From contig CAZBAG010000003.1 of the NCBI GenBank assembly GCA_964490365.1, positions 18,116 to 82,115 of the forward strand: a stretch of 64,000 bases of DNA, given 5' to 3'. The position numbers and the translations under genes were made by a program. Below the pieces are notes generated by a model. It saw only the letters and a list, made by a program, of their open reading frames with translations. It was not told the DNA's origin and ran no database searches. The DNA comes from an uncultured Candidatus Saccharibacteria bacterium (GTDB lineage Bacteria > Patescibacteriota > Minisyncoccia > Phycocordibacterales > CSBR16-119). Positions 8,061 through 63,874 of the stretch are shown piece after piece. Each line of letters starts with the position of its first letter. Within the stretch, counting starts at the first letter, position 1.

Positions 8061-8061
8061 A

Positions 8062-34055: not shown

Positions 34056-35090
34056 TTATCCTGTCCAATGGAAAGCAAGAATACTAAAATCAACCAAGTT
34101 TATTTTTCCATCACCGTTGAGGCATGAAGTTTCTTTGATAATAATTTCTCCAGATAATGGTTTGTTAAACCAAAAGGCTGCGATAGAGAAGTCGATCAAA
34201 TCGATTCGACTATCATCGTTGAGGTCTGCTGTGCAGGATGAGGCTCCTGGAACTTTGAGAATATTTTGATCTCCCACTTGAAAGGCAACTCGTTTTCCGA
34301 ATCCACTCGATTCTCCTGTGGTCAGGTTTGTTTTTGATCGACCGCTGTGTGAACCTTCTTCAAGTGGAGCAGAGTTAAAATTGTACAGATACACACCATC
34401 TTCATCTGATGTTGCGTTGACGAATACCTGTGTCTCTGAGTTTACTTCAATCGTAACGTTACTTTCTGGAACGGTCTGTCCAAAAATCACAATATCATCC
34501 CCTCTCTTTACTTCAGATTTATCAACATCGATAGTTGGCGAGAGAAAGATTCCCGTAACATCGGTGGTTGAACCCTGGGTGATAAATACAGGGAAGGAGA
34601 ATGGATTTGACTCCACATTATTTTCATCACGACTTTTAACGGTGAAGTTATAGTTTCCAGGATTGAGGTCAAGAAGGTTTACTCGGAAACGAGCGTCCGG
34701 GCCAGCAATTGTTTCAACTGCAATAACACCATCTTTTAAAATCGTGACTCTGGAAAGAGGGTAGGCACGACCAGAAAAGGTAACACCTGTGTCTGGCGGG
34801 CGTGATCCTCCACCACCTCCGCCTCCACCACCACTCGAAGAATTTGATTCGCTATCATCGGTATATGAAGAGCAACCTGGGTCGTTAGGAAAGTCTATGA
34901 GTGTATCAGAGTCATTGTCTTGCCCGTCGAAACATTGTGGGGCGGGAACGATTGTGATCGTAAAGTTCGATGTTTCATCAGATTGTAGTTGTGTCGCCTG
35001 TATAAAGAAAAAGTATACGAAGCCACCAACCAATAGAGTCGCTAGTAGATAGAGTAATTTTTTTGCTAAAACTGTCATATTAACTTGCAA
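34056..35090 (-). CDS. Dockerin-domain protein (N-terminal anchor, poly-Gly linker, Ig-like domain, C-terminal dockerin)
   Basis: Two calcium-binding dockerin repeats: DLNDDSRIDLIDFSIAAF and NGDGKINLVDFSILAF. A GGGGGGGGG linker is present. Confidence 0.65.
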   Translation of the reverse strand: MQVNMTVLAKKLLYLLATLLVGGFVYFFFIQATQLQSDETSNFTITIVPAPQCFDGQDNDSDTLIDFPNDPGCSSYTDDSESNSSSGGGGGGGGGSRPPDTGVTFSGRAYPLSRVTILKDGVIAVETIAGPDARFRVNLLDLNPGNYNFTVKSRDENNVESNPFSFPVFITQGSTTDVTGIFLSPTIDVDKSEVKRGDDIVIFGQTVPESNVTIEVNSETQVFVNATSDEDGVYLYNFNSAPLEEGSHSGRSKTNLTTGESSGFGKRVAFQVGDQNILKVPGASSCTADLNDDSRIDLIDFSIAAFWFNKPLSGEIIIKETSCLNGDGKINLVDFSILAFHWTG

Positions 35091-37467
35091 TGATTGAAAG
35101 TGTCATGTTAATAGAGTAACTATCAGCAGGTTGCTCAGCTGGAATTGTCTGAGATATTCCAATACCTGTAATATCCCAATAACAGTTTGTATCTGCACCA
35201 CTTGCTGCGCTCGCTAAGGTGATCGCATCTGTTACTCCTTCGCTATATGAACTACTACTTCCGCTAGAAATATTAGTGAGTGTACATCCACCTTCTGGAG
35301 TAATCGTGCTTGCCCCAGGGTTGAGTGTCATACGTCCACCGAGTGAATCCGCGTCACCACCATCTCCAGCGTTTGCTGTGGGGTCATTGAAATCATAGTC
35401 TGTGGTTCCATTCCAAAAAGCAGTTGCACCAGCGTCTGCAGCGAGTGATAGTGTCCATGTGGCTGTCCCTGTTCCATTATCAACTCTTACTTTCTGAGAA
35501 GTTGTTCCAAAAGTACCCGTGGCAGTTTGATGCACAAAAGATACGTTTGCCCCGTTCATGCCAACAGAAGGTGATCCAACCGTAGTGCCACCAGCATCAA
35601 CAATGTCGACAGACAAAGCTCCTCCTGCAGATGTTGTTATTTCAGGAATAACAGAATATGTATCAAGTAATGTTCCACCTGACTCTACAACTCGAAAACA
35701 ATACGAGGTGTTTGCGGGCGCACCATTATCGATAAGTGAAAAATCCCATTTTCCGTCTTGTCCGGTGTTAATTGTAGAGACGGAGTTAGTGAAGTTGTTT
35801 AATTCTTCGTAGTCTTGATTAACAATCGTGTCTGCGCTGTGTGTTGGATCATTTGCGTTTGAGGTAAGGTTGTCTCCATCAGTAGGAGATGCGTTATTGT
35901 TATATGCTATAGCGGTGGCGCCCGTTACATCTGCATAGGTTTCTCCAGAAAATCCAGTGTCACATGTTCCAGATTTTTGTGCAAACTGTAACTTAAAATT
36001 TTTACCACTTGTTGTTAGGTTTGCATTTGAAATATGAAGGAGGAGTCGTAATCGAAAAGCTCCACCAGTTACGCTGATGGTTCCTGCAGTATCTTGTGAT
36101 GCAAGAGCAGTTCCTACGTCAGTTGAGTCGTTGTTTGCAAAAAATCGATAGGCGGATTGTTCTGTAGCGCTCGCTGGTAGTGTAAACAGAAATGTCGTAG
36201 CGTTATATGTTACGTTACCCGTACCCGTCCCCCCAGCAGTAACAAGACTTCTAATGGCAATTGTGTCAGTACTCGTTATTGTGTCAGTGTTTGTCGTGTC
36301 TTGAAACCATCCTGTTGTACCCTGGAGATTGGTAATATCGTTATTTCCATTTGTACCACTAATACGCATACGGATACTCATATCTCGGTTAGATGCATTG
36401 GCAGATACATAGATACCAAACTTTGATACTTCCCCTACTGAACCGATAAACATTTTCTGTTGTGTTTCTGTTGATGTGTTTGTGCCCAAACCACCAATCG
36501 GCGATATCCATATAGATGATGCTGTTGAGGAACGAGTGAAAGCAGATGCACCTAAGAACGTTATTTGTTGTGGGTTATCTGAAACCAAAGTGATTTGAAA
36601 GTTTCTAATGTTAATATTTCCACCAGATCCAAGGGTGGAAAAAGAGAAGTTTACTAAATCACCCGCTGTTATTGAGTCAGTATTGCTCGTGTCTCGTAAA
36701 AGTCCCGAGACGCCGCTCCCAAATACGACCGACTGGTTTCCATTTCCAGCGTTTTTACGAAAACGAAACGTTGTGTTTGTTGTTCTGGCATTAGCGGAAA
36801 CATACGCTCCAAAGTTTGAAGCCACCGAACCATGATTAATCATATTTTGCACGATAGGCTCTGTTGTTGATGAAAGAAGGTTTCCAACAGGGTATGTGTA
36901 TCGTGTGGTATTGTTGGTTGCAAAACTCGCAAGAGCAGAAGCAGCCATCAAGAATTGTGTTGTACTTCCATCGCTTGCTTCAAAGAAAATTGTTACCGAG
37001 TTTAATGTAATAGTACCAGCTGTATAGGTGATTTGCATATTAATCAAATCACCCGCCGAAACACTATCAGAGTTTGTCGTATCTTGAAAAAGACCTGTTA
37101 GGGTTGAACCAATGGTGACAGTATTATTTCCATCTGCTCCATTTTTGCGAAACTTTACGGTTGTGTCTCCTGTTGCATTTGCCGCAGCAACAAGGACGGA
37201 TAGTCCTGTAAACGTACCAGCTTTCGGTACATAGAACTGAACCTCTGCTTCTGTTGCTGTTGCAGTGGCACGAGCATGTACAATAGGGTAGTAGTTAGCA
37301 CCTATCGTACTAGCCCCGTTAAATGATACGACATGAGGAACTTTGTATCCTCCTGTAGCCTTGACCTCTTTTGGAATTATAAGAAGAGGGTAAAATATTA
37401 ATACAATAGTTAAAAAAATAACTTGAATTTTTTTTAAAGAAAATAACTTTTTCAATTTAGTAGTCAT
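35080..37467 (-). CDS. Large Thr/Asn/Gly-rich surface protein with about 60-aa internal repeats and a C-terminal domain shared with the 39416-40117 protein
   Basis: N-terminal anchor. At least three repeats of the form (F/I)R(F/M)RKNG.(N/D)GN..V..G....GL(F/L).DT.N.D..(S/T)AGDL.N. The C-terminal 150 aa ends ...QTIPAEQPADSYSINMTLSIIAS. Confidence 0.6.
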   Translation of the reverse strand: MTTKLKKLFSLKKIQVIFLTIVLIFYPLLIIPKEVKATGGYKVPHVVSFNGASTIGANYYPIVHARATATATEAEVQFYVPKAGTFTGLSVLVAAANATGDTTVKFRKNGADGNNTVTIGSTLTGLFQDTTNSDSVSAGDLINMQITYTAGTITLNSVTIFFEASDGSTTQFLMAASALASFATNNTTRYTYPVGNLLSSTTEPIVQNMINHGSVASNFGAYVSANARTTNTTFRFRKNAGNGNQSVVFGSGVSGLLRDTSNTDSITAGDLVNFSFSTLGSGGNINIRNFQITLVSDNPQQITFLGASAFTRSSTASSIWISPIGGLGTNTSTETQQKMFIGSVGEVSKFGIYVSANASNRDMSIRMRISGTNGNNDITNLQGTTGWFQDTTNTDTITSTDTIAIRSLVTAGGTGTGNVTYNATTFLFTLPASATEQSAYRFFANNDSTDVGTALASQDTAGTISVTGGAFRLRLLLHISNANLTTSGKNFKLQFAQKSGTCDTGFSGETYADVTGATAIAYNNNASPTDGDNLTSNANDPTHSADTIVNQDYEELNNFTNSVSTINTGQDGKWDFSLIDNGAPANTSYCFRVVESGGTLLDTYSVIPEITTSAGGALSVDIVDAGGTTVGSPSVGMNGANVSFVHQTATGTFGTTSQKVRVDNGTGTATWTLSLAADAGATAFWNGTTDYDFNDPTANAGDGGDADSLGGRMTLNPGASTITPEGGCTLTNISSGSSSSYSEGVTDAITLASAASGADTNCYWDITGIGISQTIPAEQPADSYSINMTLSIIAS

Positions 37468-48288: not shown

Positions 48289-48552
48289 ATGAATACAAAC
48301 AAAGAAAAGATGGCTCGTCGCCTAAAAATCATTGAAGGTCAGGTTCGAGGTTTAAGAGAGATGGTCGAAAAAGGGACTTACTGCATTGATGTGATTACCC
48401 AAAGCTCTGCAATCAAGCAAGGACTTTCGAATGTCGAGGATATGCTCATGGAGCATCACCTTTCGCATTGTGTAGTGAACCAAATAAAAGGCGGTACTCC
48501 TGATAAGGCTGTCGGTGAAGTTCTTAAGGTTTATAAGTTAAAGCGCAAATAA
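48289..48552 (+). CDS. csoR: CsoR/RcnR-family metal-sensing transcriptional repressor
   Basis: An 87-aa four-helix-bundle family with YCIDV...HLSHC (Cys-His-Cys ligand set). Confidence 0.8.
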   Translation: MNTNKEKMARRLKIIEGQVRGLREMVEKGTYCIDVITQSSAIKQGLSNVEDMLMEHHLSHCVVNQIKGGTPDKAVGEVLKVYKLKRK

Positions 48553-48555
48553 ACT

Positions 48556-50880
48556 ATGACCACTGCTAAAACCTACAGAGTAAAAGGAATGCACTGCGCG
48601 TCATGCGCCGGCATTATTGAGAAGACTTTCAAAAAGACTGAGGGTGTCCAGTCTGCAGAGGTTAACTATGGGACCGAAACGGCAAAAATTTCATATGACG
48701 AATCAAAAACAAACCCTCATCATCTTTCACAAAAAATAGAAAAGTTCGGATACTCTCTCGCTCTGGATCAAGACAATCCTCATAATCATGCAGGTCCCAC
48801 AGCCGAAGAAATGGGTATGTCTCCGAGCGAACATGCAGCACATCTTGGTCTAAATCAAACCAAGAAAGAAAAATTGGCTGAAGTTGCAGCTCAGAGAATA
48901 CTTGTACTTTCAGCTTTGCCTCTTGCTGTCATTGCAGCCTTTGTTATGGGTTGGGATATTTTTGCTCAGTACGGCCTGGTAGCTGAAATGAGCTATATCA
49001 TCAAAGAGTTTTTTCATCACCTTCTGCCTCTCCTTGCAACATATACGCTCTTTGTTGTTGGTAAGCCTTATCTCCAGGGTTTTTATCGATTCCTTCGCTA
49101 TGGCAAAGCGAATATGGATACACTTATCGGTATAGGAACAGTCGCTGCATTTTTATACAGTTTTGCGGTGACCGCTTTTGAAGATGTCCTCAGACCTTTT
49201 ATAAACGTTGATTATCAATACTACGACGTAACCATAGTTGTCATCACCTTTATTGCTCTTGGCAAATATTTAGAGGCTTGGTCCAAAATAAAAACTGGTG
49301 ATGCAATTGAGAAGCTTCTTAACCTTCAGGCAAAAACTGCTCTTGTGGTCCGAGACGGAAAAGAAATTGAGATTTCAGTAAATGATGTAAAGCATAACGA
49401 TCTCATAATTGTTAAACCAGGAGCAAAGATTCCGGTGGATGGTGTGATAACCGAAGGATCATCTTTTGTAGACGAATCAATGGTTACCGGTGAACCAATG
49501 CCAGCCCAAAAGAAAATCGGAGACTCAGTCGTAGCGGGAACAATCAACACAAACGGATCATTTACATTTAAAGCTACGAAAGTTGGTTCAGAAACTCTAC
49601 TCGCACAAATAATCAAAATGGTTGAAGACGCTCAAGGTAGCAAGGCACCTATTCAAGCATTGGCCGATAAAATTTCATCCGTCTTTGTACCAATTGTCCT
49701 CGTTATCGCATTCCTTACCCTTGGCGCTTGGTTATTCTTCGGATCGCAATATCTTGGTTTTTCTCAAGCGCTTTCATTCGGTCTTGTGTCGTTTGTCGGC
49801 ATACTCGTGATCGCTTGCCCTTGTGCACTTGGTCTCGCAACTCCTACGGCAATTATCGTCGGCGTTGGAAAGGGTGCTAAAGAAGGTATCCTCATTAAAG
49901 ATGCGGCAACACTAGAGAAACTCCACAAGGTAAATACAGTGGTGGTTGATAAGACAGGTACGATCACGAAAGGAAAGCCAGCTCTTGTGGATATTCAAAA
50001 TCTTTCAGATAAAAAGGATGACGAACTTGTATCCATCCTTGCATCGCTTGAAAAGAAATCAGAACACCCGATCGCCCATGCGATCGTAAGCTATGCGCAA
50101 GAGAAAAACATTCGGGTATCTAATATTTCAAATTTCGAGGGCATACAAGGTAAAGGACTTAAGGGAACAATTAGTGGAACTGAATACTTTGTTGGCAATG
50201 CCAAACTCATTAAAGACCTGAGTATTTCATTCGATTCGTCAAAAGTTGAGCAGTTCACAGCTCAAGGAAAAACTCCGGTCATTCTCGCAACTAAAGAAAA
50301 GGTTCTCGGTTTTGTCATGGTGGCCGATGAAATAAAAGCGGAATCGATTGAAGCAGTAAAAAATCTCCACTCGCTTGGTATCAAAGTAGTGATGCTCACC
50401 GGCGATGATGAAAAGGCAGCAAAATACATTGCCTCATTGGTTGGTATTGATGATGTGGTTGCGCACGTACTTCCTGAAGACAAATTGAAAAAGATTGAGG
50501 AGCTGCAGTCACAAGGTCGAGTGGTTGCCATGGCAGGTGATGGTGTAAACGACGCTCCTGCACTCGCTCAAGCTGATGTGGGTATTGCCATGGGGACCGG
50601 AACTGATGTGGCTATCGAATCGGCCGGCATTACACTTCTCGGGGGTGATATTTCAAAGCTCGTAAAAGCTATCAAACTTTCAAAAATGACCATGCGCGGC
50701 ATCAAACAGAATCTCTTCTGGGCTTTCATCTACAATATTGTCGGTATTCCTCTTGCAGCTGGGGCGTTATATCCAGTCTTCGGTTGGCTCCTTAATCCCG
50801 TCTTTGCCGGATTTGCCATGGCGATGTCTTCGGTATCGGTCGTATCAAACTCACTTAGGATTAAAGCTCAAAAACTATAA
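48556..50880 (+). CDS. copA: Copper-translocating P1B-type ATPase
   Basis: N-terminal HMA domain GMHCASCAG, transmembrane CPC motif, DKTGTIT phosphorylation site and GDGVNDAP. Confidence 0.95.
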
Positions 50881-50885
50881 TTATC

Positions 50886-51917
50886 ATGTCTACACAAACA
50901 CAGAAATACACCTTTCACGTTCATGGCATGCACTGCAACTCCTGTGTACTTATGACTGAAAGTGAGATCGGCGATCTGCCGAACGTCACTCATGTTAAAT
51001 CGAGCTTGAAAAATCATTCAGTTCAAGTAATTGGCGACTTTAGAAATAAGACATTGGAACAGATCGCAGAAGAACTTACCGTCCCCCTCAAGCCTCATGG
51101 CTATACTGTGTCAGTTGAAAAACAAAAACATAATGCCAAATGGGGAGACTTTAAAATTGCGATCCCAATCGCACTAAGTTTTGCTGTCCTCTTTGTAGTC
51201 CTGCAGAAACTGGGAATTGTTAACCTAGTGAGCGCAGGCAATGTCACATACGGCACTGCTTTCGTGATCGGTATCATTGCTTCACTTTCAACATGCATGG
51301 CAGTTGTCGGCGGGCTAGTTCTATCAATGTCAGCAACTTTTGCTAAAGAGGGCGACAAGATAAAACCTCAGCTTATGTTCCATGCTGGACGAATAGCCTC
51401 ATTCTTTGTACTCGGTGGAGTAATTGGTGCGATCGGGTCAGCATTTACACTCAATACTTCTGCGACGTTTATCCTGAGTTTGATAATTGGCATAGTCATG
51501 CTCATCCTCGGTATCAATCTTCTCGATACATTCCATTGGGCAAAAAAGTTGCAGCCGTCAATGCCGAAGTTTATTGCTAAGCATGCTCATAGCGTATCAA
51601 AGTTCAATCATACACTTACGCCGCTTCTTGTAGGTATTGTTACTTTTTTCCTGCCATGCGGATTCACACAGTCAATGCAACTTTATACGCTTACCACTGG
51701 TAATTTCCTTCATGGCGGACTGACTATGCTCGCGTTTGCACTTGGAACATTGCCAGTTCTCGCGCTCATTAGTTTTAGCTCATTCAGTATTCAAAAAAGT
51801 TCAAAGGCAGGAGTGTTCTTTAAGACTGCAGGGCTTATTGTGATTATGTTCGCATTATTCAATCTCATTAATAGTCTGGTAGTGATCGGAGTCATACCGC
51901 CAATATTTAACTTCTAG
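50886..51917 (+). CDS. HMA-domain protein fused to a CcdA/DsbD-type thiol-disulfide membrane domain
   Basis: N-terminal GMHCNSCV metal-binding domain. The membrane part has Cys in transmembrane segment 1 (LSTCMAV) and in a later segment (FLPCGF), as in CcdA/DsbD/MerT-like proteins. Confidence 0.6.
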   Translation: MSTQTQKYTFHVHGMHCNSCVLMTESEIGDLPNVTHVKSSLKNHSVQVIGDFRNKTLEQIAEELTVPLKPHGYTVSVEKQKHNAKWGDFKIAIPIALSFAVLFVVLQKLGIVNLVSAGNVTYGTAFVIGIIASLSTCMAVVGGLVLSMSATFAKEGDKIKPQLMFHAGRIASFFVLGGVIGAIGSAFTLNTSATFILSLIIGIVMLILGINLLDTFHWAKKLQPSMPKFIAKHAHSVSKFNHTLTPLLVGIVTFFLPCGFTQSMQLYTLTTGNFLHGGLTMLAFALGTLPVLALISFSSFSIQKSSKAGVFFKTAGLIVIMFALFNLINSLVVIGVIPPIFNF

Positions 51918-51930
51918 TATAATTCTAATC

Positions 51931-52320
51931 ATGAAAGCAACTATTATTTCAGTCATTGTGGCGGTGTCCCTCATCGGGGGAGCTTTCTTGCTTAGCCGAG
52001 GAAGTTCTAGCGATGATAATTCTATTCCCGCAAACAATGTCAGCATCGTGGATGGAAAACAAATAATCGAGATACGAGCAAAAGGCGGATACCGGCCACG
52101 AAAGAGTATTGCGAAAGCCGGCATGCCTACAGTGTTGCGATTCAATACCGCAGGCACATTCGACTGCTCATCCTCGGTACGCATTCCAAGTCTCAATATC
52201 AGCAAAGGTCTGCTACAGTCAGGTTCTACTGACATAGATATTGGTACCGGAAAGCTGGGAACACTTCAGGGTTCATGCGGAATGGGCATGTATCCGTTTG
52301 AAGTTGAGTTTCAAAGTTAA
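51931..52320 (+). CDS. Small secreted cupredoxin-like protein
   Basis: Signal anchor followed by a beta-rich domain with Cys and Met ligand candidates (FDCSSS...GSCGMGMYPFEVEF). Confidence 0.45.
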   Translation: MKATIISVIVAVSLIGGAFLLSRGSSSDDNSIPANNVSIVDGKQIIEIRAKGGYRPRKSIAKAGMPTVLRFNTAGTFDCSSSVRIPSLNISKGLLQSGSTDIDIGTGKLGTLQGSCGMGMYPFEVEFQS

Positions 52321-52346
52321 TTATTATTAATGTAAATTAAAAATAT

Positions 52347-52715
52347 ATGACAACAAATAAAAAATTAGAATGGATATTGAGGATTGGTGTAGCCGGTGAA
52401 TTTTTGGGGCATGGTATTTTCGCACTTCAAGGTAAAGCTGATTGGATAAAGTGGACACAGCAGCTTTCAGGTATGGAAGCCTCAACTGCTACAACTTTTA
52501 TTTTTATCGTCGGTCTCGTCGATGTTCTCTTGGCTATTCTGGTTCTAGTAAAACCGGTCCGTCCCATCCTACTTTGGATGGCATTTTGGGGGTTTTGGAC
52601 AGCGCTTGTTCGCCCGCTAGTCGGAATGCCTATATGGGATTTCATCGAGCGTTTCGCTAACTGGGCAGCACCGTTGGCTCTCTACTACGTTTATAGAGTG
52701 AACAAGGATAAGTAG
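52347..52715 (+). CDS. DoxX-like small membrane protein
   Basis: A 122-aa protein with 3-4 transmembrane segments. Confidence 0.35.
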   Translation: MTTNKKLEWILRIGVAGEFLGHGIFALQGKADWIKWTQQLSGMEASTATTFIFIVGLVDVLLAILVLVKPVRPILLWMAFWGFWTALVRPLVGMPIWDFIERFANWAAPLALYYVYRVNKDK

Positions 52716-53271: not shown

Positions 53272-53348
53272 GTCCGCATTTTAACTTCAAACAAAAGATT
53301 AGTGAATGAATGGTAAAAATAGGGTTCCATTCACTGGTTTTATTGAAA

Positions 53349-56273
53349 TTAAGGGCCAAACTCTCGTTTTCGAATCTCAACACCCTCCTCGGCTCGTTTT
53401 CGTTCGTGCATGATTCTTACGTTAAGGTATTTTTCGTATTCCACAGCAAAATTCTTTACGGCGGTATGAGGATCGGTCTTAAGTTTCTGTGCATCCGCTT
53501 TCTTTGCTTCGTAGGCTGTTACAAAACCGTCTTCTCCCATGACTACACCTGTTTGAGAAAGACTACCGAATAGCGAACCCCGAATCTCATCATATTTGGC
53601 ATGGTCATGGTATTTTTTAGCGATTGCTTTTACTACGCCAAATAGAAAATCCTCCCCTTGGCGTTTATTAATTATGGATAAAACTATATCCAGTTCTTCT
53701 TTTCCACCATTATTTACAAGATCAACCAGGGACTGCTCAAAGGTGGGGCTGAAACTTGAAAAGATTTCTTCCAAAAGATGGCTAGCTTCCCATCGAAACA
53801 ACCATTTGTTTTTCTTGCCACCTTTACTGAACCATGCCAAAAGCATAGGTATAATTTTTGTCTCATTTTTCTTTAAGGCAGCATTGAGTTTGTGAAAATT
53901 AAAGGGAACAGCATCGTATCTGTCATATATGTTTCTCTCACGTTTTGATTTAAGTTCGACTCTTTTGTAGAAAAAATCAATTATCTTTTCAGGATACTTT
54001 TCAGCAAGCGGCATCAGAACCTCCTCGATATGATAGTCGATGTGTGGGAACATCAATAAGTTTTCAACAAGTACGTCAAAGTCTTTTTCAGAAAAATCCT
54101 TTAAAATAGATTCTCCTCGAAACCAGACGTTCTGAATCCACCAGTAGTTTTTATTTTTTGTAAGCTCTTTAAGTGTCTTTATAAATAAAGCTCTCGTGTT
54201 TTTATATTTTGGGTAGTTTCTGACTATTGAACCTGTGATGTTGTTAAGGGCTTGCAAATCCTTCTTTGCTTTTGCCTTAGTGAATATTTTATTCAAGATT
54301 TTTCCATCAATTTCTTCCACATAGTCAAATAGGCGTGCTGAAACCGCTAAATGCTTATCATCCATGGTCCATTCACTGACAATCTGTTTTGCCTTCTTCT
54401 TTTGAGGGCCTGACCAAATTCCAGCTATAAGGTGAATGAGAAACGGATCAAGCTCTGGAGTATCGATGAGTTGCAGAGCAAGGTTGGTTTTTTGCTTTCC
54501 AAGCTCATAAAGGAATTTGTTGAAATATTGAAATTCGCCTGGCTCGACGCTGGAGTAGTTTTTAATAATTTTTAGAATTTTAAGTTTCCATTCAGGAATA
54601 TTTTCCTGGGTAATATCCTGCACATATTGAGATACCTGATTGTTTCTTGTTTTTGCTGCTTTACCCCAATCCATTTCCTCGTCAAAACGTCCATCATAGC
54701 CAACAAGCACTCTGTACATTTGGTAATCCTGATTTGAGTGGATTATGGCATCTAAATCTCCAATACGAGCAAAAGACTCTCTCTTAAATCTCCTTATAAG
54801 CCAGTATGACTGCTCCTCAATTTCTTTCATGATCTCATTTTCAGCAGATGGGAGTATAGAAATATAAAAATCAATTAGCTCATTAGTGTTTTCGATAATG
54901 ACCTTCTCCATTTCTTCGTTCTTTTCTCCTCGATCTGAAGTGTAAGATGCTTGCTGTAGTCTTTTCAGCACTTTCTCTTTTAGACTGACGCTGGGAGCAA
55001 GGAAGTAGAGCTTTTTACCAAGTGCCAGCGTTCTTTTTCTGACCTCGAGAAGTGGTTTGTCGGGGTGTAAGGCTCCGAAATGAAAAGTGAATGTTTTATA
55101 ATCAGTCATCTCATGACCCTCAAAAGAAGGGTCGAGAAGGTGACCAACTGCTTCGGCAGCAAGATCAAATCGTTTTAATGTCTCAGCTTCACTCCACGCT
55201 TCAATTTTTTCCAAAAGAAGAATTTGCATTTGATATCCTATCTGTTTCAATGCCCTAAGATCGTACTGTGCAAAATGCTCGAATACTTTCAATACCTTTG
55301 CTTTAATATCCTTGTCTGTATCTTCAGCAATCTCTGCTAACAAATCAAAAGCTTCTATTGGTCTATGAAATCTAAGTTTTTCGATTATATCGAGACACAC
55401 GATTGCCACATCTTTATATGAATGACCGGCAAGCTTACCAAAAGGGGTCTCCATTGGCTCAGTTTTGGTATTTTTTGCTTTGGCGATTACAGCTTTAATT
55501 ATCGTTGCCGCATTAAGGTGTTCTGGAGTCTTGTCTCCAAATTCTTCGATGTATTTTAAAAGGAGCTTTAAATTTTCGTGCAATTCATTATTTGATTTTG
55601 AATCAAGTACGCTCTTAAGAAAGGACTCGTCAAAGATTTTTTTACCTTCCTTTACCTTTTGAATCTCTTTTGCAATGAAGTCAAAAGTATACTGGGCTTC
55701 CTTGATATGATTCTTCATCGTATCTGCCAGGCGTTTTTGTAGAGATTCAAAGGTATGTGAATCAAAGTTTTTGATTTCATCATCAGGTTTATAGGTAGAA
55801 TCATGAGCCATTTCTGACCATGCATGATAAAGGACTGTGGTGAGCTGAATTTCGCATTTTAGTCCATTGAATCTTTGATACTTTGCTGATTTCAAAAGGT
55901 CGTCTTTTAATTTAACAATCAAATGTGATGCATTGTAACCATCTGTAGAAAATCTAAGGTTATGTTTGACAACCTCGAATTCTTTGAATAACAGGTTTGC
56001 AAATCTATCAATATTATCTGTATAAAAAATAACTCTGCAGCCAGAAAGATCATCTATTTCAAGTAAATCTTTAACATTTACCTTGCCACTCTCCAGCTTT
56101 CTTTTTAAGTGATCAGGGTCTTTTTCTCTACTTGCAACCATTTGGTATCCAAATGATTCATTTTTTAATATACTCTCCAAAATTGATTTTACTTCGAGAG
56201 CAAAATCATGAAAGTCCTCCTTTCTCTTTTTATAGCTTTCAATTAAGGTTTTAATATTTTCTTCTTTTGACAT
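53349..56273 (-). CDS. 974-aa protein with an N-terminal RelA/SpoT-type nucleotidyltransferase (alarmone-synthetase-like) domain fused to an approximately 800-aa all-helical C-terminal region
   Basis: RelA/SpoT synthetase-fold motifs are present: DDLSGCRVIFY (compare DxxGxRVI), YNASHLIVKL (compare YRSLHTAV) and CEIQLTTVLYHAWSEMAHDSTYK (compare EIQIRTxxMHxxAExGxAAHWxYK). The remainder is helical with no recognised domain. Confidence 0.75.
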   Translation of the reverse strand: MSKEENIKTLIESYKKRKEDFHDFALEVKSILESILKNESFGYQMVASREKDPDHLKRKLESGKVNVKDLLEIDDLSGCRVIFYTDNIDRFANLLFKEFEVVKHNLRFSTDGYNASHLIVKLKDDLLKSAKYQRFNGLKCEIQLTTVLYHAWSEMAHDSTYKPDDEIKNFDSHTFESLQKRLADTMKNHIKEAQYTFDFIAKEIQKVKEGKKIFDESFLKSVLDSKSNNELHENLKLLLKYIEEFGDKTPEHLNAATIIKAVIAKAKNTKTEPMETPFGKLAGHSYKDVAIVCLDIIEKLRFHRPIEAFDLLAEIAEDTDKDIKAKVLKVFEHFAQYDLRALKQIGYQMQILLLEKIEAWSEAETLKRFDLAAEAVGHLLDPSFEGHEMTDYKTFTFHFGALHPDKPLLEVRKRTLALGKKLYFLAPSVSLKEKVLKRLQQASYTSDRGEKNEEMEKVIIENTNELIDFYISILPSAENEIMKEIEEQSYWLIRRFKRESFARIGDLDAIIHSNQDYQMYRVLVGYDGRFDEEMDWGKAAKTRNNQVSQYVQDITQENIPEWKLKILKIIKNYSSVEPGEFQYFNKFLYELGKQKTNLALQLIDTPELDPFLIHLIAGIWSGPQKKKAKQIVSEWTMDDKHLAVSARLFDYVEEIDGKILNKIFTKAKAKKDLQALNNITGSIVRNYPKYKNTRALFIKTLKELTKNKNYWWIQNVWFRGESILKDFSEKDFDVLVENLLMFPHIDYHIEEVLMPLAEKYPEKIIDFFYKRVELKSKRERNIYDRYDAVPFNFHKLNAALKKNETKIIPMLLAWFSKGGKKNKWLFRWEASHLLEEIFSSFSPTFEQSLVDLVNNGGKEELDIVLSIINKRQGEDFLFGVVKAIAKKYHDHAKYDEIRGSLFGSLSQTGVVMGEDGFVTAYEAKKADAQKLKTDPHTAVKNFAVEYEKYLNVRIMHERKRAEEGVEIRKREFGP

Positions 56274-56289
56274 GAATATTTGTTTACGT

Positions 56290-56308
56290 GTTGATAACTG
56301 GGGTTGAT
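56290..56308. promoter_or_regulatory. Direct repeat GTTGAT-N7-GTTGAT in the 65-bp divergent promoter region, just upstream of a TATAAT box (56327-56332): candidate operator for the LexA-fusion protein
   Basis: GTTGATAACTGGGGTTGAT. It lies between the RelA/SpoT-fusion start (56273, minus strand) and the LexA-methylase start (56339). Confidence 0.35.
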
Positions 56309-56338
56309 GACTTTCTATTTATTTTCTATAATATCACC

Positions 56339-57799
56339 ATGATTACAAAGAAGCAAAAAAGTGTCCTAGATTTCATCACTGATTATCAAAAGAGTAAGGG
56401 GTATGCTCCCGCTCTTGAGGAGATAAGGAAGAAATTTAAACTTGCTTCTGTTTCAACTGCTCATCATCATGTGACAAAGCTTCGTGATTTGGGATATCTT
56501 GAGAAAGAAGAGAACAAACCTAGAGCAATTGATATCGTGGATAGAGAGATGATGGTAAAAATCCCTCTTCTTGGAACTATTGCAGCAGGACAACCCATTG
56601 AAGCTATACAAAATAAAGAGACTATTGCTGTGGCTAAAAGCAAAATACCTTCCTCTTCTGAGGTCTATGCTTTACGTGTTGTCGGAAATAGTATGATTGA
56701 GGAAAATATTAATGATGGAGACATTATTTTAGTAAAAAATCAGCAGACAGCAGAGAATGGACAGAAAGTTGTAGCTCTTATAGATAATCAAGAAACAACA
56801 CTAAAGAAATTTTATAAAGAAAAAGGACATATTCGACTCCAGCCAGCAAATAAGGATATGGAACCTCTTATTTTTAAGAGTACTAAAGATGTATCTGTTC
56901 AAGGCGTAGTGCTTGATGTGATAAAAGAACAAAGGTCCCTTCCTCTAGAGTTACCAGAACAAAAAGAATTAGAAAAATTTAAGGAACTTCCTTTAAATAA
57001 ATTTATATGTGGTGACGCGATACATTATCTTCGAAGACTACCAGATAGGTCAGTAGATCTAATTGTCGCAGATCCTCCTTACAATCTTTCTAAGGGAAGT
57101 AATATCCGTTTTGATAACCAAGTTAATAAACTTAAGGGTTTTGGTGGTACCTGGAATAAAGTTATGGAGCAATGGGATAGCATGCCAATGGCGGATTATT
57201 TTGAATTTACTATTAAGTGGGTACAGGAAGCAAAAAGAGTTTTAAAACCTACAGGTTCTATATGGGTATTTGGAACTTACCACAATATTGGAATTATTAA
57301 CTTTATTTTCCAAACTCTCGGCATCGAAATTATCAATGAAGTAGTTTGGTATAAACGTAATGCTTTTCCAAATCTAGCAGGGCGAAGATTTACAGCAAGT
57401 CACGAGACATTATTGTGGGGTCATGTTGGAAATGAAAAGAGACAATATTACTTTGACTATAAACAATCTAAAAGTTATGCAGACCCTTCTGATTTATTAA
57501 AGGCGGGAGGAAAACAGATGCGTACTGTTTGGGATATTCCAAACAACAAAGGAGCCGGGGAGATTAGCTTTGGTAAGCACCCAACCCAAAAACCATTGAG
57601 TGTTTGTAAAAGGATAATCTCTTTAACTTCTAAACCAGGTGATGTTGTCGTAGCTCCTTTTGGAGGTGCTGGAAGTGAGTGTGTTGCAGCAAAAGAATTA
57701 GGTAGAAATTATTTAGGGTTTGAGCTTGATCAGCAGTATGTGGATATAGCACAGAAACGACTTTCAGCTGTTCGTAATCAAGATACACTTTTCTCATAA
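56339..57799 (+). CDS. Fusion of a complete LexA-type repressor (wHTH plus S24 autopeptidase) to an N6-adenine/N4-cytosine DNA methyltransferase (beta class, DPPY)
   Basis: LexA half: wHTH (LEEIRKKFKLASVSTAHHHVTKLRDLGYLE), cleavage site LLGTIAAGQP, Ser motif LRVVGNSM and Lys motif QKVVALIDNQETTLKKF. Methylase half: DLIVADPPYN (motif IV), a VVVAPFGGAGSE C-terminal AdoMet motif, beta-class order. Start taken at ATG 56339. Confidence 0.85.
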   Translation: MITKKQKSVLDFITDYQKSKGYAPALEEIRKKFKLASVSTAHHHVTKLRDLGYLEKEENKPRAIDIVDREMMVKIPLLGTIAAGQPIEAIQNKETIAVAKSKIPSSSEVYALRVVGNSMIEENINDGDIILVKNQQTAENGQKVVALIDNQETTLKKFYKEKGHIRLQPANKDMEPLIFKSTKDVSVQGVVLDVIKEQRSLPLELPEQKELEKFKELPLNKFICGDAIHYLRRLPDRSVDLIVADPPYNLSKGSNIRFDNQVNKLKGFGGTWNKVMEQWDSMPMADYFEFTIKWVQEAKRVLKPTGSIWVFGTYHNIGIINFIFQTLGIEIINEVVWYKRNAFPNLAGRRFTASHETLLWGHVGNEKRQYYFDYKQSKSYADPSDLLKAGGKQMRTVWDIPNNKGAGEISFGKHPTQKPLSVCKRIISLTSKPGDVVVAPFGGAGSECVAAKELGRNYLGFELDQQYVDIAQKRLSAVRNQDTLFS

Positions 57800-57803
57800 T
57801 GTC

Positions 57804-58610
57804 ATGATTCTAAAACCCTTTATAAAATGGACCGGAAGTAAACGGTCCCAAGCTGAAGAAATAACCTCTTATTTTCCTAAAGAGATTGATACTTACTACG
57901 AACCGTTTTTAGGTAGTGGTGCAATTTTAGGACATCTGAAACCAAAAAAGGCTGTAGGTGGAGATGTAAATAAACCCCTCATTGAGCTTTGGAAAATATT
58001 GAAGGAAGATCCAGAAAAAGTTGCAAAGGAGTATACAAAACATTGGCAATCATTACAGGATGAGGGTCACTTATATTTCTATAAAATAAGAGAACGGTTC
58101 AATAAAAAGCAATCACCAATAGACTTTCTTTTTCTAACCAGGACATGTGTAAATGGTCTTATTCGCTATAACAAAAATGGAGAATTTAATAATTCACTAC
58201 ACCATACACGTAAGGGAATGAATCCTGAGCAACTAAGAAAGATCATTCTTCAGTGGGCTATTCTTATTAAAAGCTACAGATTTTCAGATCAATCTTACGA
58301 GATAACAACAAAAGACGCTGGTAAAAATGATTTTGTGTATCTGGACCCTCCTTATGCAAACACTGGGACTAGATATTTTGGAGGAATCGATTATGACAAT
58401 TTCATTAGTTACCTTGAACAGTTAAATAAGAAGGGTATAAAATTCGCTCTTTCATTTGACGGTACCAGAGGAGATAAATCCTTTGTCGTTGAGATTCCAA
58501 AACATTTATACAAACGGCACATTCTCGTTCACTCGGGAAACTCTGCTTTTAATAAGGTCCAGAACGGAAAGGTGGAGAAAGTTCACGAATCTCTTTACCT
58601 GAATTATTGA
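57804..58610 (+). CDS. Dam-family (D12 class) N6-adenine DNA methyltransferase
   Basis: FIKWTGSKRS, YYEPFLGSGAI (AdoMet site) and LDPPYANTG motifs in alpha-class order. Confidence 0.85.
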   Translation: MILKPFIKWTGSKRSQAEEITSYFPKEIDTYYEPFLGSGAILGHLKPKKAVGGDVNKPLIELWKILKEDPEKVAKEYTKHWQSLQDEGHLYFYKIRERFNKKQSPIDFLFLTRTCVNGLIRYNKNGEFNNSLHHTRKGMNPEQLRKIILQWAILIKSYRFSDQSYEITTKDAGKNDFVYLDPPYANTGTRYFGGIDYDNFISYLEQLNKKGIKFALSFDGTRGDKSFVVEIPKHLYKRHILVHSGNSAFNKVQNGKVEKVHESLYLNY

Positions 58611-61326: not shown

Positions 61327-62238
61327 ATGGAAGGAATCACACTCGATCCAGAATGGGAACTACCAAACAGAAAAGAAGAGATTGCGCATCAGTATCATCT
61401 GAAGAAAATACAAGAACTTCAACAGATGGTAGATCGGTCCAAGTTGCGGGGTAAACGCAGGGTCACACGATTTTTTGTCGATAATGAATATGTGGAGAAC
61501 GGCTATATGGAAAAATTGCCGAAGCTCTGTACCTTGGTGTATCAAGGACTCTTATATCATGGCAATACCGAAACGCAGACAGCGTGGCCGAGTTTTAAGA
61601 AACTCACCGGACACACTGGAGAAAAGAATCGAAACTACATATCAAATGCTCTTCGGTTGCTCAAAGAGTGCGGCATCATTGGTGTGGTCCAGTGCAAGAA
61701 AGGATTTAAAACCTTAAACCTTTACTATTTTCAGTCGACCGAATATTGGATTAGTCTCGAACATACTACTAAACGTCTTAAGCTTACCGATAGCCTTGCG
61801 CAGTATCCAAACGTGACCCTCCGTAGTATCAAAAGACGTGGTGTCCGTAGGAAGAACGTTGATACTCTAACTAACCAAATAAATAACAATCCGAATTCTG
61901 TAACTAGCATCGGAGATGTCTTAGCAAGGAGAATGCAGAAATGGCAGAAAAGCCCAGAGGTTGCTATTCCAGAGGGTTCTCGCAATACTGTCGTTCGCAC
62001 AGCATATGAGGGAGATGTAGAGGTAAGTACCATACACTTAGATAGCCCAGATATACCCGAGGAAAATGGTGAAAAAACGGTACTCCGTAGTGTTCCAGAA
62101 GATACCACGCAGGTTCCCGTAATAACGGGAAATTTACGGGAAAAAATCGCTGAATTGGATACCACGCAAACACACCATGAATTAGCCCTAGAAGACATAA
62201 CCAAAGAAGATATTGGACCAGGTAGCGCAACATTATAA
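61327..62238 (+). CDS. Winged-helix replication-initiator-like protein (HTH_36/RepA-like)
   Basis: LVYQGLLYHGNTETQTAWPSFKKLTGHTGEKNRNYISNALRLLKECGIIGV reads as a Rep-type winged helix. Start taken at ATG 61327. An overlapping upstream ORF 61170-61454 lies in another frame. Confidence 0.45.
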   Translation: MEGITLDPEWELPNRKEEIAHQYHLKKIQELQQMVDRSKLRGKRRVTRFFVDNEYVENGYMEKLPKLCTLVYQGLLYHGNTETQTAWPSFKKLTGHTGEKNRNYISNALRLLKECGIIGVVQCKKGFKTLNLYYFQSTEYWISLEHTTKRLKLTDSLAQYPNVTLRSIKRRGVRRKNVDTLTNQINNNPNSVTSIGDVLARRMQKWQKSPEVAIPEGSRNTVVRTAYEGDVEVSTIHLDSPDIPEENGEKTVLRSVPEDTTQVPVITGNLREKIAELDTTQTHHELALEDITKEDIGPGSATL

Positions 62239-63874
62239 AACCATGAATAAAACACAACCAATCAAATACTTTCTCTATGCCCGTAAATCGAGCGAGGCAG
62301 AAGATCGACAAGCAGCATCCATCGATGCTCAAAAGGACGAACTCTTAAAGATCGCTAAAGAACAAGGGCTGGTTATCGTTGATATCTTGGAAGAATCACA
62401 ATCAGCCAAGAAGCCAGGAAGACCAGTATTCAACAAAATGCTTGAGAGAATCTATAAAAGCGAAGCCAACGGTATTGTATGTTGGAAATTGGACCGACTA
62501 GCCCGTAATCCAGTAGACGGTGGACAGATAAGTTGGATGTTGCAGCAGAGTGTGATAGCTCAGATTGTTACCTTCGGCCGAACGTATTATCCAACTGACA
62601 ACGTTCTCATGATGCAGGTTGAGCTTGGAATGGCCAACCAATACATCCGAGATCTTTCAGTAAACGTAAAGAGAGGACTCGCTAAGAAGGTCAGAGAAGG
62701 TTGGCTTCCAAGCGGGGCACCGATTGGGTACATGAGCACACCCGATAGAGATAAAGGATTTAAAACAATCAGTATCGATCCAAACCGATTCCCAGTGGTC
62801 CGCAGACTCTTTGACCTTATGCTTACCGGCACTTACACTGTGGCTCAAATTTGGAATATATCCCGTAAGGAGTTGAATTTGAAAACATATCAGCGAAGAA
62901 ATATTGGTGGTAAGCATCTTTCAAAAAGTGCAGTGTATGCAATTTTAAGCAATCACTTTTACTACGGATGGTTTGAGTACCCATATAAAAGCGGAGAATG
63001 GCATAAGGGCGCACATGAGCCGATGATTACCGAAGATGAGTTTAATAAGGTTCAAGTACTTATGGGGCGCAAGACAACTCCTCGGCTTGAGAAGAATTTA
63101 AGTTTTGCTTTTACAGGGCTTATGAAGTGCGGCACCTGTGGTTGTAGTATTACGGCTCAAGCCAAAGTTAAGCGATGTAAGAATGGCAACGTCCACCATT
63201 ATGTCTACTACAACTGCACCAAGAAGAAAGTCGATACCAACTGTCCAGAGCGATGTGTCGAACTAAAGGATCTGACACTCGATATCAAAGAAAAAATAAG
63301 TGAGATCACTATTTCAGAAAAGTTTAAGAACTGGGCTATCAAGCATCTCCATGTAATGAGAAAGAATGAAGCTGACAGTGATACGTTGGTCCTTAAAGGA
63401 AAGCATAAAGAACTTGAAGAAGTTACTAAGAATTTGCAGTCACTTACGCTTAATTTCACCTCACCAAAGAACCAAGACCGATTATTGATATCTGATGATG
63501 AATACCAGAACCTCAAAGCCGGAATGGTTAAACGAAAGCTAATTCTTGAAGATGAGCTCAAGGTCCAAAAGAAACAGGTCCTTGAGTGGGTGGAACTTAC
63601 CGAGCGAACCTTTGATTTTGCATGTTATGCCCATATTTGGTTTGAAAAAGGAGACGATAAGACGAGGAGGGCGATACTTTCATGTTTAGGCTCGAACCTC
63701 ACCCTAAAAGGCAAAAAACTCTTTGTTAATTACCATTCTTTCATCAAGACGATGATGAAAAGTCGTCAGGCGGTTGAAGAAGAATTAGAGAAGGTTAGAA
63801 CCTCTGAAAAGCGAGTCTATAAAAGACAAAACCCCACAAATCGTGAGGTTTCGTCACTAGGGCTCCCCGAGTAG
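62213..63874 (+). CDS. Large serine recombinase (resolvase catalytic domain, recombinase domain and zinc ribbon)
   Basis: N-terminal YARKSSEAEDRQAASIDAQ...CWKLDRLARN with the catalytic Ser, a recombinase domain and a CGTCGC...YYNC zinc ribbon. The protein is 553 aa. The last five codons are templated by a tRNA 3'-end-like sequence. Confidence 0.9.
   Translation: MDQVAQHYKTMNKTQPIKYFLYARKSSEAEDRQAASIDAQKDELLKIAKEQGLVIVDILEESQSAKKPGRPVFNKMLERIYKSEANGIVCWKLDRLARNPVDGGQISWMLQQSVIAQIVTFGRTYYPTDNVLMMQVELGMANQYIRDLSVNVKRGLAKKVREGWLPSGAPIGYMSTPDRDKGFKTISIDPNRFPVVRRLFDLMLTGTYTVAQIWNISRKELNLKTYQRRNIGGKHLSKSAVYAILSNHFYYGWFEYPYKSGEWHKGAHEPMITEDEFNKVQVLMGRKTTPRLEKNLSFAFTGLMKCGTCGCSITAQAKVKRCKNGNVHHYVYYNCTKKKVDTNCPERCVELKDLTLDIKEKISEITISEKFKNWAIKHLHVMRKNEADSDTLVLKGKHKELEEVTKNLQSLTLNFTSPKNQDRLLISDDEYQNLKAGMVKRKLILEDELKVQKKQVLEWVELTERTFDFACYAHIWFEKGDDKTRRAILSCLGSNLTLKGKKLFVNYHSFIKTMMKSRQAVEEELEKVRTSEKRVYKRQNPTNREVSSLGLPE

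Follow-up and report, generated by a model that had tools for sequence, protein, structure and literature searches.

What does a RelA/SpoT-type enzyme do at the head of a single chain of 974 residues, in a gene transcribed divergently from a restriction-modification module? The gene lies on the minus strand of a 64,000-nucleotide stretch of contig CAZBAG010000003.1 (hereafter the window, at its full length), from an uncultured Candidatus Saccharibacteria bacterium. An initial annotation, made from the sequence alone, had proposed it as a candidate abortive-infection or defence effector with a RelA/SpoT homologue (RSH) core, a very long helical C-terminus and two small downstream open reading frames (ORFs) as possible antitoxin partners. 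We show here that the protein belongs to a coherent family in which a conserved RSH head is fused to an alpha-solenoid, and that the same solenoid occurs with heads of other kinds, either fused to it or encoded next to it. These properties argue for a conflict or defence module made of a single polypeptide; the idea of small antitoxins was abandoned.

An RSH head with a conserved active site

The reading frame is intact and opens with an ATG, and database protein P0001 is 100% identical to its product. The AlphaFold2 model of the protein has a mean predicted local distance difference test (pLDDT) score of 89.6. In this model the head (residues 1-215) contains the nucleotidyltransferase-like alpha/beta fold of an RSH synthetase domain and a long connecting helix; the tail (residues 216-974) is predicted to be almost wholly helical, as a HEAT/ARM/TOG-like alpha-solenoid interrupted by two small beta-hairpins (residues 274-281 and 383-401).

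An RSH catalytic core at the N-terminus had been recognised from its motifs, and profile searches agree with this assignment. Searched alone against Pfam, the first 225 residues matched PF04607 (RelA_SpoT) with E=7.7e-10 and 39.5 bits (gathering cutoff 27), over profile positions 1-111 of 113. An hmmscan of the whole 974-residue protein detected no Pfam family at E<=0.01. This null result was dropped as an argument against an RSH identity, because the isolated head scores above the cutoff and structure and residues concur; a short catalytic domain can be masked by a long helical tail in routine annotation. The closest database relatives (P0001-P0004) likewise carry no precomputed Pfam match. 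In NCBIfam the head gave a weak match to YjbM. It matched the PADLOC candidate PDC-S33 partially (E=2.7e-10, residues 28-216, profile positions 51-244 of 349), as did the relative P0119 (E=8.4e-13, similarity confined to the head), and it matched PHROG 9640 with E=2.9e-25 (residues 7-249, profile positions 4-250 of 365).

The motifs cited in the initial annotation were located at residues 74-84 (DDLSGCRVIFY), 113-122 (YNASHLIVKL) and 141-162 (EIQLTT...HAWSEMAHDSTYK), and they align with the D-x-x-G-x-R, G-Y-x-S-x-H and E-I-Q...W...Y-K motifs of Bacillus subtilis SAS2/YwaC. They are all present, but one label had to be corrected: DDLSGCR, described as G-loop-like, is the Mg2+/donor-site motif D-x-x-G-x-R, and the G-loop is the GYNASH loop that contains Y113. 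Residue roles were taken from the FaRel2 structure paper (PMC11782079) and transferred by motif spacing and by the YwaC alignment. In FaRel2, R64, K66, S70 and K74 form the donor ATP site, D90, G93 and R95 provide the Mg2+ site and the contacts to the donor adenine, and Y128 is the tyrosine of the acceptor G-loop, with E145 and Q147 also involved (PMC11782079). The equivalents in the head are R49, K51 and K59 in the donor site, D75-x-x-G78-x-R80, Y113 in the G-loop, and E141-x-Q143. Conservation was counted in 52 homologues that are 33-88% identical to the window protein. K51, D75, R80, Y113, E141 and Q143 are invariant (52/52), R49 is kept in 51 and G78 in 48, the position of K59 is occupied by lysine in 44 and arginine in five (K or R in 49/52), and position 55 is a serine in 47 of the 52, the window protein having a histidine. 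Because the catalytic and donor residues are conserved across these homologues, the head is very probably an active enzyme under purifying selection.

Two arginines of the (p)ppGpp synthetase YwaC are replaced throughout the family: the one that follows the G-loop tyrosine in GYRSLH is an asparagine in 50/52 homologues, and the one in EIQIRT is a threonine in 51/52. According to the FaRel2 structure paper, a reduced positive acceptor patch goes with toxic small alarmone synthetases (toxSAS) that target tRNA (PMC11782079). On account of these two points the acceptor would lean slightly, at odds hardly better than even, towards tRNA or another molecule outside classical (p)ppGpp synthesis. In family-profile and structure comparisons, the head is nearest to RelP and RelQ, nearer than to CapRel or Tas1.

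A tail shared with other heads

The large helical C-terminus was said to have no described family, which was confirmed: the 757 residues scanned from about residue 218 matched no family in Pfam, NCBIfam or PADLOC. A profile built on the tail alone retrieved 1453 proteins from 1.84 billion representative proteins, 743 of them at E<=1e-30. The best 150 tail relatives were sorted with local hidden Markov models (HMMs). Sixty have an RSH head (class A; one is partial, and the 59 complete proteins have a median length of 977 residues), 28 have a different fused head (class B, median 1034 residues), 35 have a short alternative N-terminus of about 100 residues (class C, median 798), 16 are stand-alone solenoids (class D, median about 770) and 11 are fragments. 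The tail is homologous end to end to the solenoids of proteins with a DUF4365 head, to those associated with a PIN protein and to stand-alone ones, with E-values of 1e-125 to 1e-246 over about 680-750 profile positions.

All six alternative heads tested against Pfam DUF4365 matched it, five of them above the gathering cutoff. DUF4365 is a domain of the PD-(D/E)xK nuclease fold. The PADLOC model of the Argonaute-associated restriction endonuclease (REase) was matched by 16 of 48 solenoid relatives (26 from class B, 12 from class C and 10 from class D); this domain is the collateral nuclease of SPARDA systems (PMC10810196, PMC12205087).

Effectors are also encoded by separate genes beside solenoids that lack a fused head. 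The stand-alone solenoid P0134 is preceded, 3 bp upstream, by a 314-codon gene whose product can be aligned over its full length with the fused nuclease head (E=2.7e-106), and P0143, also stand-alone, has a DUF4365 gene upstream and lies on an element with ParAB and a serine recombinase. A class-C solenoid of Legionella adelaidensis (26% identical to residues 284-973 of the window protein, E=8e-79) has a gene annotated in RefSeq as 'PIN domain-containing protein' 2 bp upstream and an integrase beside it. In the case of a second class-C solenoid, the upstream gene overlaps by 4 bp and its product shares its C-terminal 85 residues with the Legionella PIN protein. No RSH head split from its solenoid was found in the five stand-alone solenoid loci inspected, where the partners were DUF4365, PIN-like or other nuclease-like proteins. 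In one locus (L098, 272-1150) a 292-codon gene directly upstream of a class-D solenoid encodes a PD-(D/E)xK-type GKDGGID...FQYKW motif and has no match to the DUF4365 head HMM; this could give the scaffold an effector of a fourth type.

Classes A, B and D are intermixed in solenoid sequence space. Mean identity is 0.28 between class-A tails and 0.29 between class-A and class-B tails, and for 16 of 57 class-A tails the nearest neighbour is not of class A. This suggests that heads have been exchanged repeatedly, on a tree that is poorly resolved at such distances. Because the same solenoid is found fused to DUF4365, beside a split DUF4365 gene and beside a PIN gene, the tail appears to be a common regulatory scaffold that takes interchangeable toxic heads. 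A constant large module combined with exchangeable toxic heads, fused or split, is a hallmark of prokaryotic immune sensors.

The most conserved part of the tail is a loop between helices. The conservation profile is highest at residues 901-925, the pattern S-x-T-G-V-V-x-G-E-x-G-F is found at residues 906-921, residues 906-915 are non-helical in the model, and the glycines G913 and G916 do not vary in any head class (alignments A1 and A4). The head or a ligand may well dock at this loop.

Size and distribution of the family

The initial annotation could not place the protein in any family. It does belong to one, of proteins of about 970 residues that are already in databases and uncharacterised: a search of 5.8 billion proteins gave at least 142 relatives, nearly all of 963-1015 residues, that align end to end at 33-49% identity. 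Most have a precomputed PF04607 match and, where they are named, they bear only the label 'RelA/SpoT domain-containing protein'. In a scan of one genome per species, 119 matches were obtained for about 185,579 species (about 0.06%). Bacterial holders include Bacillus and its relatives (among them the Bacillus cereus group), Legionella, Paraburkholderia and Mesorhizobium; among metagenome-assembled genomes (MAGs) there are many Nitrospirota, Desulfobacterota and members of the candidate phyla radiation (CPR)/Patescibacteria; matches assigned to archaea come from Asgard archaea, Thermoplasmata, Methanosarcinales, Bathyarchaeia and Micrarchaeota. Firmicutes and Proteobacteria are among the bacterial phyla concerned. 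Because it is rare and its occurrence across domains is patchy, this distribution indicates that the family spread by horizontal transfer.

To our knowledge, RSH synthetase domains are uncommon in archaea. Full-length RSH-solenoid genes were seen in six archaeal MAG loci (L010, L016, L017, L026, L029 and L032), with up to 48% identity to the bacterial protein, and the Asgard members are from Promethearchaeota, with a Helarchaeota protein (P0072) in addition. Among the plasmid-borne members are those of a conjugative Sphingobium plasmid and of a Rhizobium rhizogenes plasmid. The latter (pC6.5d; L094, 5785-9717) encodes a 1310-residue member annotated as 'poly-gamma-glutamate hydrolase family protein', which has an extra C-terminal domain of about 240 residues beyond the solenoid and adjoins VapC/Phd, an integrase, insertion sequences and a large SIR2 protein. 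A phage-borne family was considered and rejected: tblastn against 50,697 phage records found no full-length copy and one head-only match, a scan of the 2.9 million viral contigs of IMG/VR found no relative, and PHROG 9640 covers the head only.

Neighbours of the homologues

The 147 nearest flanking ORFs of 82 loci were scanned in batch and read qualitatively. They include integrases, type I, II and III restriction enzymes, methylases, a prokaryotic Argonaute (pAgo) with SIR2-APAZ, DrmD, GajB, a DRT reverse transcriptase, HipA, AlbA_2 and McrB-like AAA_5 proteins. The locus of Bacillus mycoides contains GIY-YIG genes, a resolvase and an integrase, and that of a Thermodesulfobacteriota genome a PLD-SNF2 helicase, VapBC, an Eco57I-type methylase-endonuclease, AlbA_2 and PemK. 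The Sutcliffiella locus has conflict genes of the ABC-three-component type, and one further locus has McrBC, Replic_Relax and an integrase. The homologue on the Sphingobium plasmid adjoins heavy-metal efflux genes and the SOS mutagenesis cassette imuA-imuB-dnaE2, in one locus the gene stands by itself, inserted between mutL and manC, and in locus L008 a homologue 88% identical to the window protein is directly followed by convergent phage-tail-like genes. No linkage to ribosomal or stringent-response genes was found in the sampled loci. A consistent housekeeping context had been named as evidence that would speak against a defence role; the contexts found are rich in mobile elements and defence genes.

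A conserved partner gene was sought by all-against-all clustering of the 973 ORFs within 6 kb of the homologues. No family was present in more than 7 of the 82 loci, and the largest cluster (7/82) is of integrase size. A conserved partner of any kind was rejected on this basis.

The locus in the window

The features of the locus are collected in Table 1. The divergent module of LexA-methylase, Dam-type methylase and endonuclease and the serine recombinase are as initially described, and a helix-turn-helix (HTH) protein is also encoded to the right of the restriction-modification genes. The LexA-methylase is the first gene of this module. Its LexA part is complete, with an intact AAG cleavage site, GNSM serine and LKK lysine, and scores 183 bits against TIGR00498 (cutoff 111). 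The two methylases correspond to the two halves (positions 8-263 and 362-626) of a 626-residue PADLOC type II methylase model (PDLC03302), so that the module resembles a type IIS system with two methylases, one per strand, which other organisms have as a fusion. In L008 the same LexA module (49.5% identity; 6924-8429, minus strand) is fused to a D12 methylase, is divergent from the 88%-identical RSH homologue, and has likewise retained its cleavage site and Ser/Lys dyad. These features suggest that a restriction-modification system is controlled by the SOS response. The pairing of the RSH gene with restriction-modification genes is real in the window but lineage-specific: a LexA-methylase neighbour was found only here and in L008 (2/88 loci), and a family-wide linkage to restriction-modification or LexA genes was rejected. 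The LexA-methylase would be a lineage-specific neighbour and possibly a local regulator of the divergent promoter.

The divergent genes are separated by 65 bp, in which a promoter scan placed a sigma-70-like methylase promoter (TTGATG-17-TATAAT). Its -35 hexamer is overlapped by a direct repeat, GTTGATAACT/GTTGATGACT, with a spacing of 13 bp (56290-56312), which could serve the LexA-type domain as an operator. This repeat is not shared with L008, where the inverted repeat TATCATAT/ATATGATA is found instead, and no canonical Cheo or LexA box was recognised by eye in the region.

On the other side, the 77-nucleotide spacer between the RSH gene and orf104 holds a hairpin with a U-tract and a promoter-like site (53306..53278). 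The predicted folding energy of the stem-loop is -17.5 kcal/mol (z=-3.9), and none of 200 shuffled sequences folds as well; a simple terminator scan missed it. This terminator-like structure suggests that the RSH gene is a transcription unit of its own, apart from the small ORFs. Neither orf104 nor orf79 has a match in Pfam, NCBIfam, PADLOC or PHROGs, and neither was found by tblastn in the 87 other loci, including that of the 88%-identical homologue. They may make up a small unit of their own on the left margin of the island, or may not be genes at all.

Comparison with known systems

Organisationally, the nearest relative is Olokun, in which an adaptin-like OloA is bound to the PD-(D/E)xK nuclease OloB (bioRxiv 10.1101/2025.07.10.664194). 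A solenoid and a toxic enzyme are paired in both cases, and relatives of the window protein show the same logic with a DUF4365 PD-(D/E)xK nuclease, fused or adjacent. The effector of the window protein, in contrast, is an RSH enzyme and is fused, and class-A loci have no conserved adjacent OloB; the nuclease heads match the Argonaute-associated REase model and not OloB, and the split DUF4365 and PIN partners likewise have no OloB match. The PADLOC OloA model was matched by 4 of the 48 class B, C and D solenoid relatives (best E=5.3e-9). In the class-B protein P0142 the weak similarity to OloA covers residues 660-936; the PADLOC candidate PDC-M02A was matched by 3 plus 1 of the 48. A wider 'adaptin-like' superfamily of defence proteins may thus include the scaffold. 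No OloA match was obtained for the window tail and six other class-A tails at E<=10, nor for two full-length class-A proteins at E<=0.01. Homology of the window tail to OloA was therefore set aside as a weak, transitive lead, given the lack of a match at E<=10 and the 4/48 relatives.

DSR2 is similar in general layout, being a single gene product of about 1000 residues with an N-terminal toxic enzyme of about 250 residues and a long alpha-solenoid or HEAT-like sensor region (PMC11263360, PMC11850899). The head of the window protein is however an RSH domain and not a SIR2 NADase, and its solenoid has no specific similarity to the MID and CTD of DSR2. CapRel (CapRel-SJ46, PDB 7ZTB) is, like the window protein, an RSH effector fused to a regulator in cis, but it has about 370 residues and ends in a small pseudo-Zn-finger antitoxin domain, where the window protein has an alpha-solenoid of about 760 residues. 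The alignment covers 174 of 344 CapRel residues, in the toxSYNTH half only, the pseudo-Zn-finger being absent from the window protein. Against the family profile CapRel is a weak match (E=4.6e-4), lower than RelP and RelQ. CapRel acts on tRNA, whereas for the window protein sequence gives only a lean.

Among RSH enzymes, RelP and RelQ (SAS1 and SAS2) are the best sequence and structure matches to the head and have the donor and catalytic residues in common with it. These small alarmone synthetases (SAS) are, unlike the window protein, tetrameric housekeeping enzymes of 200-250 residues without a tail, and the YwaC arginines at the position after the tyrosine and in EIQIRT are N and T in the window protein. 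Long RSH enzymes (Rel, RelA, SpoT) differ by their HD hydrolase domain and their TGS, helical, ZFD and ACT regulatory domains, which the window protein lacks. The toxins of the toxSAS modules FaRel, FaRel2, PhRel and PhRel2 (Jimmy et al. 2020) are single-domain proteins of about 200-400 residues, compared with 974 for the window protein and about 963-1015 for its family. Such toxins are often neutralised by small neighbouring proteins (PMC7229694), but a conserved adjacent antitoxin gene, as in a bi- or tricistronic operon, is absent around the present family (87 loci; clustering in 82 loci). In PANGU, the alarmone-producing toxSAS GRel/Pag1B is a phage-defence effector, activated by a separate sensor protein; the system relies on this nucleoid-associated sensor and on a DNA-mimic domain, and there is no fused solenoid. 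PDC-S33 and PHROG 9640 are models of about 350 residues that match the head and the first helices only, without the solenoid; PDC-S33 is one of 145 'guilt-by-embedding' candidates (bioRxiv 10.1101/2024.01.29.577857). No description of an RSH-solenoid fusion was found by exact-term search of open-access papers, which is weak evidence of absence. Sensor-effector immune modules made of one chain or of two genes, toxSAS effectors and the design principle itself are familiar; the RSH-solenoid single chain would be a new form of them.

Proposed function and alternative explanations

With a probability of about 0.6, we consider that the gene encodes an abortive-infection-type module for conflict or defence, complete in a single polypeptide. 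The head, a predicted ATP-dependent pyrophosphotransferase, would pyrophosphorylate an acceptor and arrest the cell, poisoning it either through the 3' ends of tRNAs or through nucleotides of the (pp)pApp or (p)ppGpp type. The solenoid would be the regulatory and sensory scaffold that keeps the head silent, until a cue from infection or from conflict with a mobile element, or the loss of a cellular partner, alters its conformation or its oligomeric state. The same scaffold would control the DUF4365 nuclease (fused or adjacent) and the PIN protein (adjacent). The defence role first proposed is made plausible by the contexts rich in mobile elements and defence genes, and more strongly by the exchange of heads. 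Some housekeeping genes are also present among the flanking ORFs of the 82 loci. The sensing of phage proteins by the tail is made less certain by two observations: conservation of the tail is even across domains of life, and a diversifying hotspot was rejected, no substitution hotspot being found in the tail between 84-88%-identical homologues; by its sequence, the tail does not have the usual signature of an arms-race sensor.

This even conservation would suit a mobile-element addiction or stabilisation module, or a stress-triggered toxin, in which the solenoid serves as an intramolecular antitoxin and which has no dedicated anti-phage role; the head would arrest growth upon loss of the element or under stress. 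Members carried by plasmids or integrative elements, with integrases, ParAB, resolvases and classical toxin-antitoxin pairs as neighbours, and the single unit without a partner gene point in the same direction. A single stable polypeptide, however, does not have the logic of differential stability; moreover, restriction, pAgo, DISARM and Gabija genes are frequent neighbours and, like the DUF4365/DREN nuclease of Argonaute systems and the PIN protein that serve as alternative heads, are typical of immunity. This explanation is rather unlikely, and it and a defence role are not mutually exclusive. Another explanation places the switch in transcription: the divergent LexA-type domain would repress the shared promoter, its RecA-stimulated self-cleavage, upon DNA damage from phage or restriction, would free the RSH gene from repression, and mere overproduction of the enzyme would stop growth. 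The solenoid would then act as a scaffold and not as a sensor. It draws on the divergent arrangement of LexA-S24-methylase genes in two loci that differ in their methylases (N6_N4 and D12) and encode 88% identical RSH proteins, on the intact cleavage sites and dyads, on the repeat that overlaps the -35 region, and on the imuA-imuB-dnaE2 cassette beside the Sphingobium homologue. An arrangement found in 2/88 loci cannot explain the family, though, and no canonical box was recognised and the repeat differs between the two loci. We consider it unlikely as a full account, and it is compatible with an abortive-infection module: LexA may add a layer of transcriptional control in this lineage, limited to these two loci.

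The similarity of the head to the (p)ppGpp synthetases RelP and RelQ, the conserved active site and the location of some loci among housekeeping genes would fit a new 'long' RSH alarmone synthetase, whose helical tail senses a cellular cue and whose product, (p)ppGpp or a related nucleotide, regulates normal stress physiology. Such a function is very unlikely in view of the occurrence in about 0.06% of species genomes, patchy across domains, the lack of HD, TGS and ACT domains and of ribosomal or stringent-response linkage in the sampled loci, and the family-wide replacement of the two YwaC arginines; in addition, the association of the same tail with nucleases or PIN proteins is ill-suited to a metabolic regulator. 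Least credible is a two- or three-gene toxin-antitoxin system in which orf104 and orf79 neutralise the RSH toxin. The two ORFs are on the same strand, directly downstream, and overlap each other, and small neighbouring neutralisers are common for toxSAS (PMC7229694), but the antitoxin idea was rejected because the ORFs are absent from the 87 other loci, no partner is conserved across the family and a hairpin, with its U-tract and a promoter-like site, intervenes; neither ORF matches a known family.

If the abortive-infection module is the correct interpretation, the consequences go beyond this locus. RSH enzymes of the toxSAS type are emerging immune effectors, for which two architectures, CapRel and PANGU, have experimental support within the literature found; the RSH-solenoid family would be a third, in the form of a giant single chain, and its solenoid a portable chassis also used with nucleases and a PIN protein. 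This opens the question by what means alpha-solenoids detect infection or stress and control toxins of different kinds, and makes a link to the mechanistically unresolved Olokun system. The wide spread of the family (Legionella, the Bacillus cereus group, plant-associated rhizobia, CPR and Asgard archaea) is relevant to the PADLOC and DefenseFinder catalogues, where it is not called as a system. Should the head catalyse something other than the RSH reactions already described, the known biochemistry of these enzymes would be widened. A broader proposal is speculative and rather improbable: the solenoid would be an ancient scaffold that senses infection or stress in bacteria (CPR included) and in archaea (Asgard and others), with control over three or more unrelated classes of toxin (RSH, PD-(D/E)xK nuclease and PIN), as an immune receptor family not recognised before and distantly related to OloA, and the RSH head, devoid of the two acceptor-side arginines of YwaC, would carry out a pyrophosphorylation unlike (p)ppGpp synthesis or tRNA-CCA modification, perhaps with a new acceptor or product.

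Other features of the window

Table 1. Coordinates of the RSH-solenoid gene, its parts and its neighbours in the window
Feature	Coordinates	Strand	Basis or remarks
Complete gene, RSH head and alpha-solenoid, 974 residues	53349..56273	-	ORF list and translation; stop codon included
Head, residues 1-215: RelA/SpoT-homologue (toxSYNTH-like) predicted pyrophosphotransferase domain and long connecting helix (residues 172-213)	55629..56273	-	
PF04607 RelA_SpoT match, residues 48-164	55782..56132	-	39.5 bits, cutoff 27
Tail, residues 216-974: alpha-solenoid (HEAT/ARM/TOG-like), the scaffold common to the superfamily	53352..55628	-	
Most conserved element of the tail, residues 906-921 (SQTGVVMGEDGFVTAY), inter-helix loop	53511..53558	-	Alignments, conservation profile, model
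Divergent intergenic region between RSH gene and LexA-methylase, 65 bp	56274..56338	.	
LexA (winged HTH and S24 self-cleaving peptidase) fused to N6_N4 DNA methylase, divergent	56339..57799	+	Pfam, NCBIfam, PADLOC
D12 (Dam-type) methylase	57804-58610	+	
Type II restriction enzyme, 673 residues	58604-60625	-	REase_II PDLC03434, E=1.7e-123
Large serine recombinase	62213-63874		
Stem-loop (10 bp) then U-rich tract, just past the RSH stop codon	53301..53335	-	RNA fold
orf104, 104 residues	52957-53271	-	Downstream of RSH gene, same strand
orf79, 79 residues	52721-52960	-	Overlaps orf104 by 4 bp; hydrophobic, membrane-like stretch

The GC content of the RSH gene and restriction-modification core is 0.35-0.37, compared with 0.42-0.43 in the flanks; other regions of the window are equally low, and low GC is a weak sign of foreign origin. 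A 795-residue ORF at 35080-37467 (minus strand), without a Pfam match at E<=0.001, lies in an ordinary chromosomal stretch that includes SecA, DnaE and pyruvate kinase. Directly to the left of the island, a copper-resistance cluster on the plus strand (48289-52715) encodes a CsoR-type repressor, a CopA P-type ATPase, an HMA/DsbD_2 protein, a cupredoxin-like protein and a DoxX-like membrane protein.

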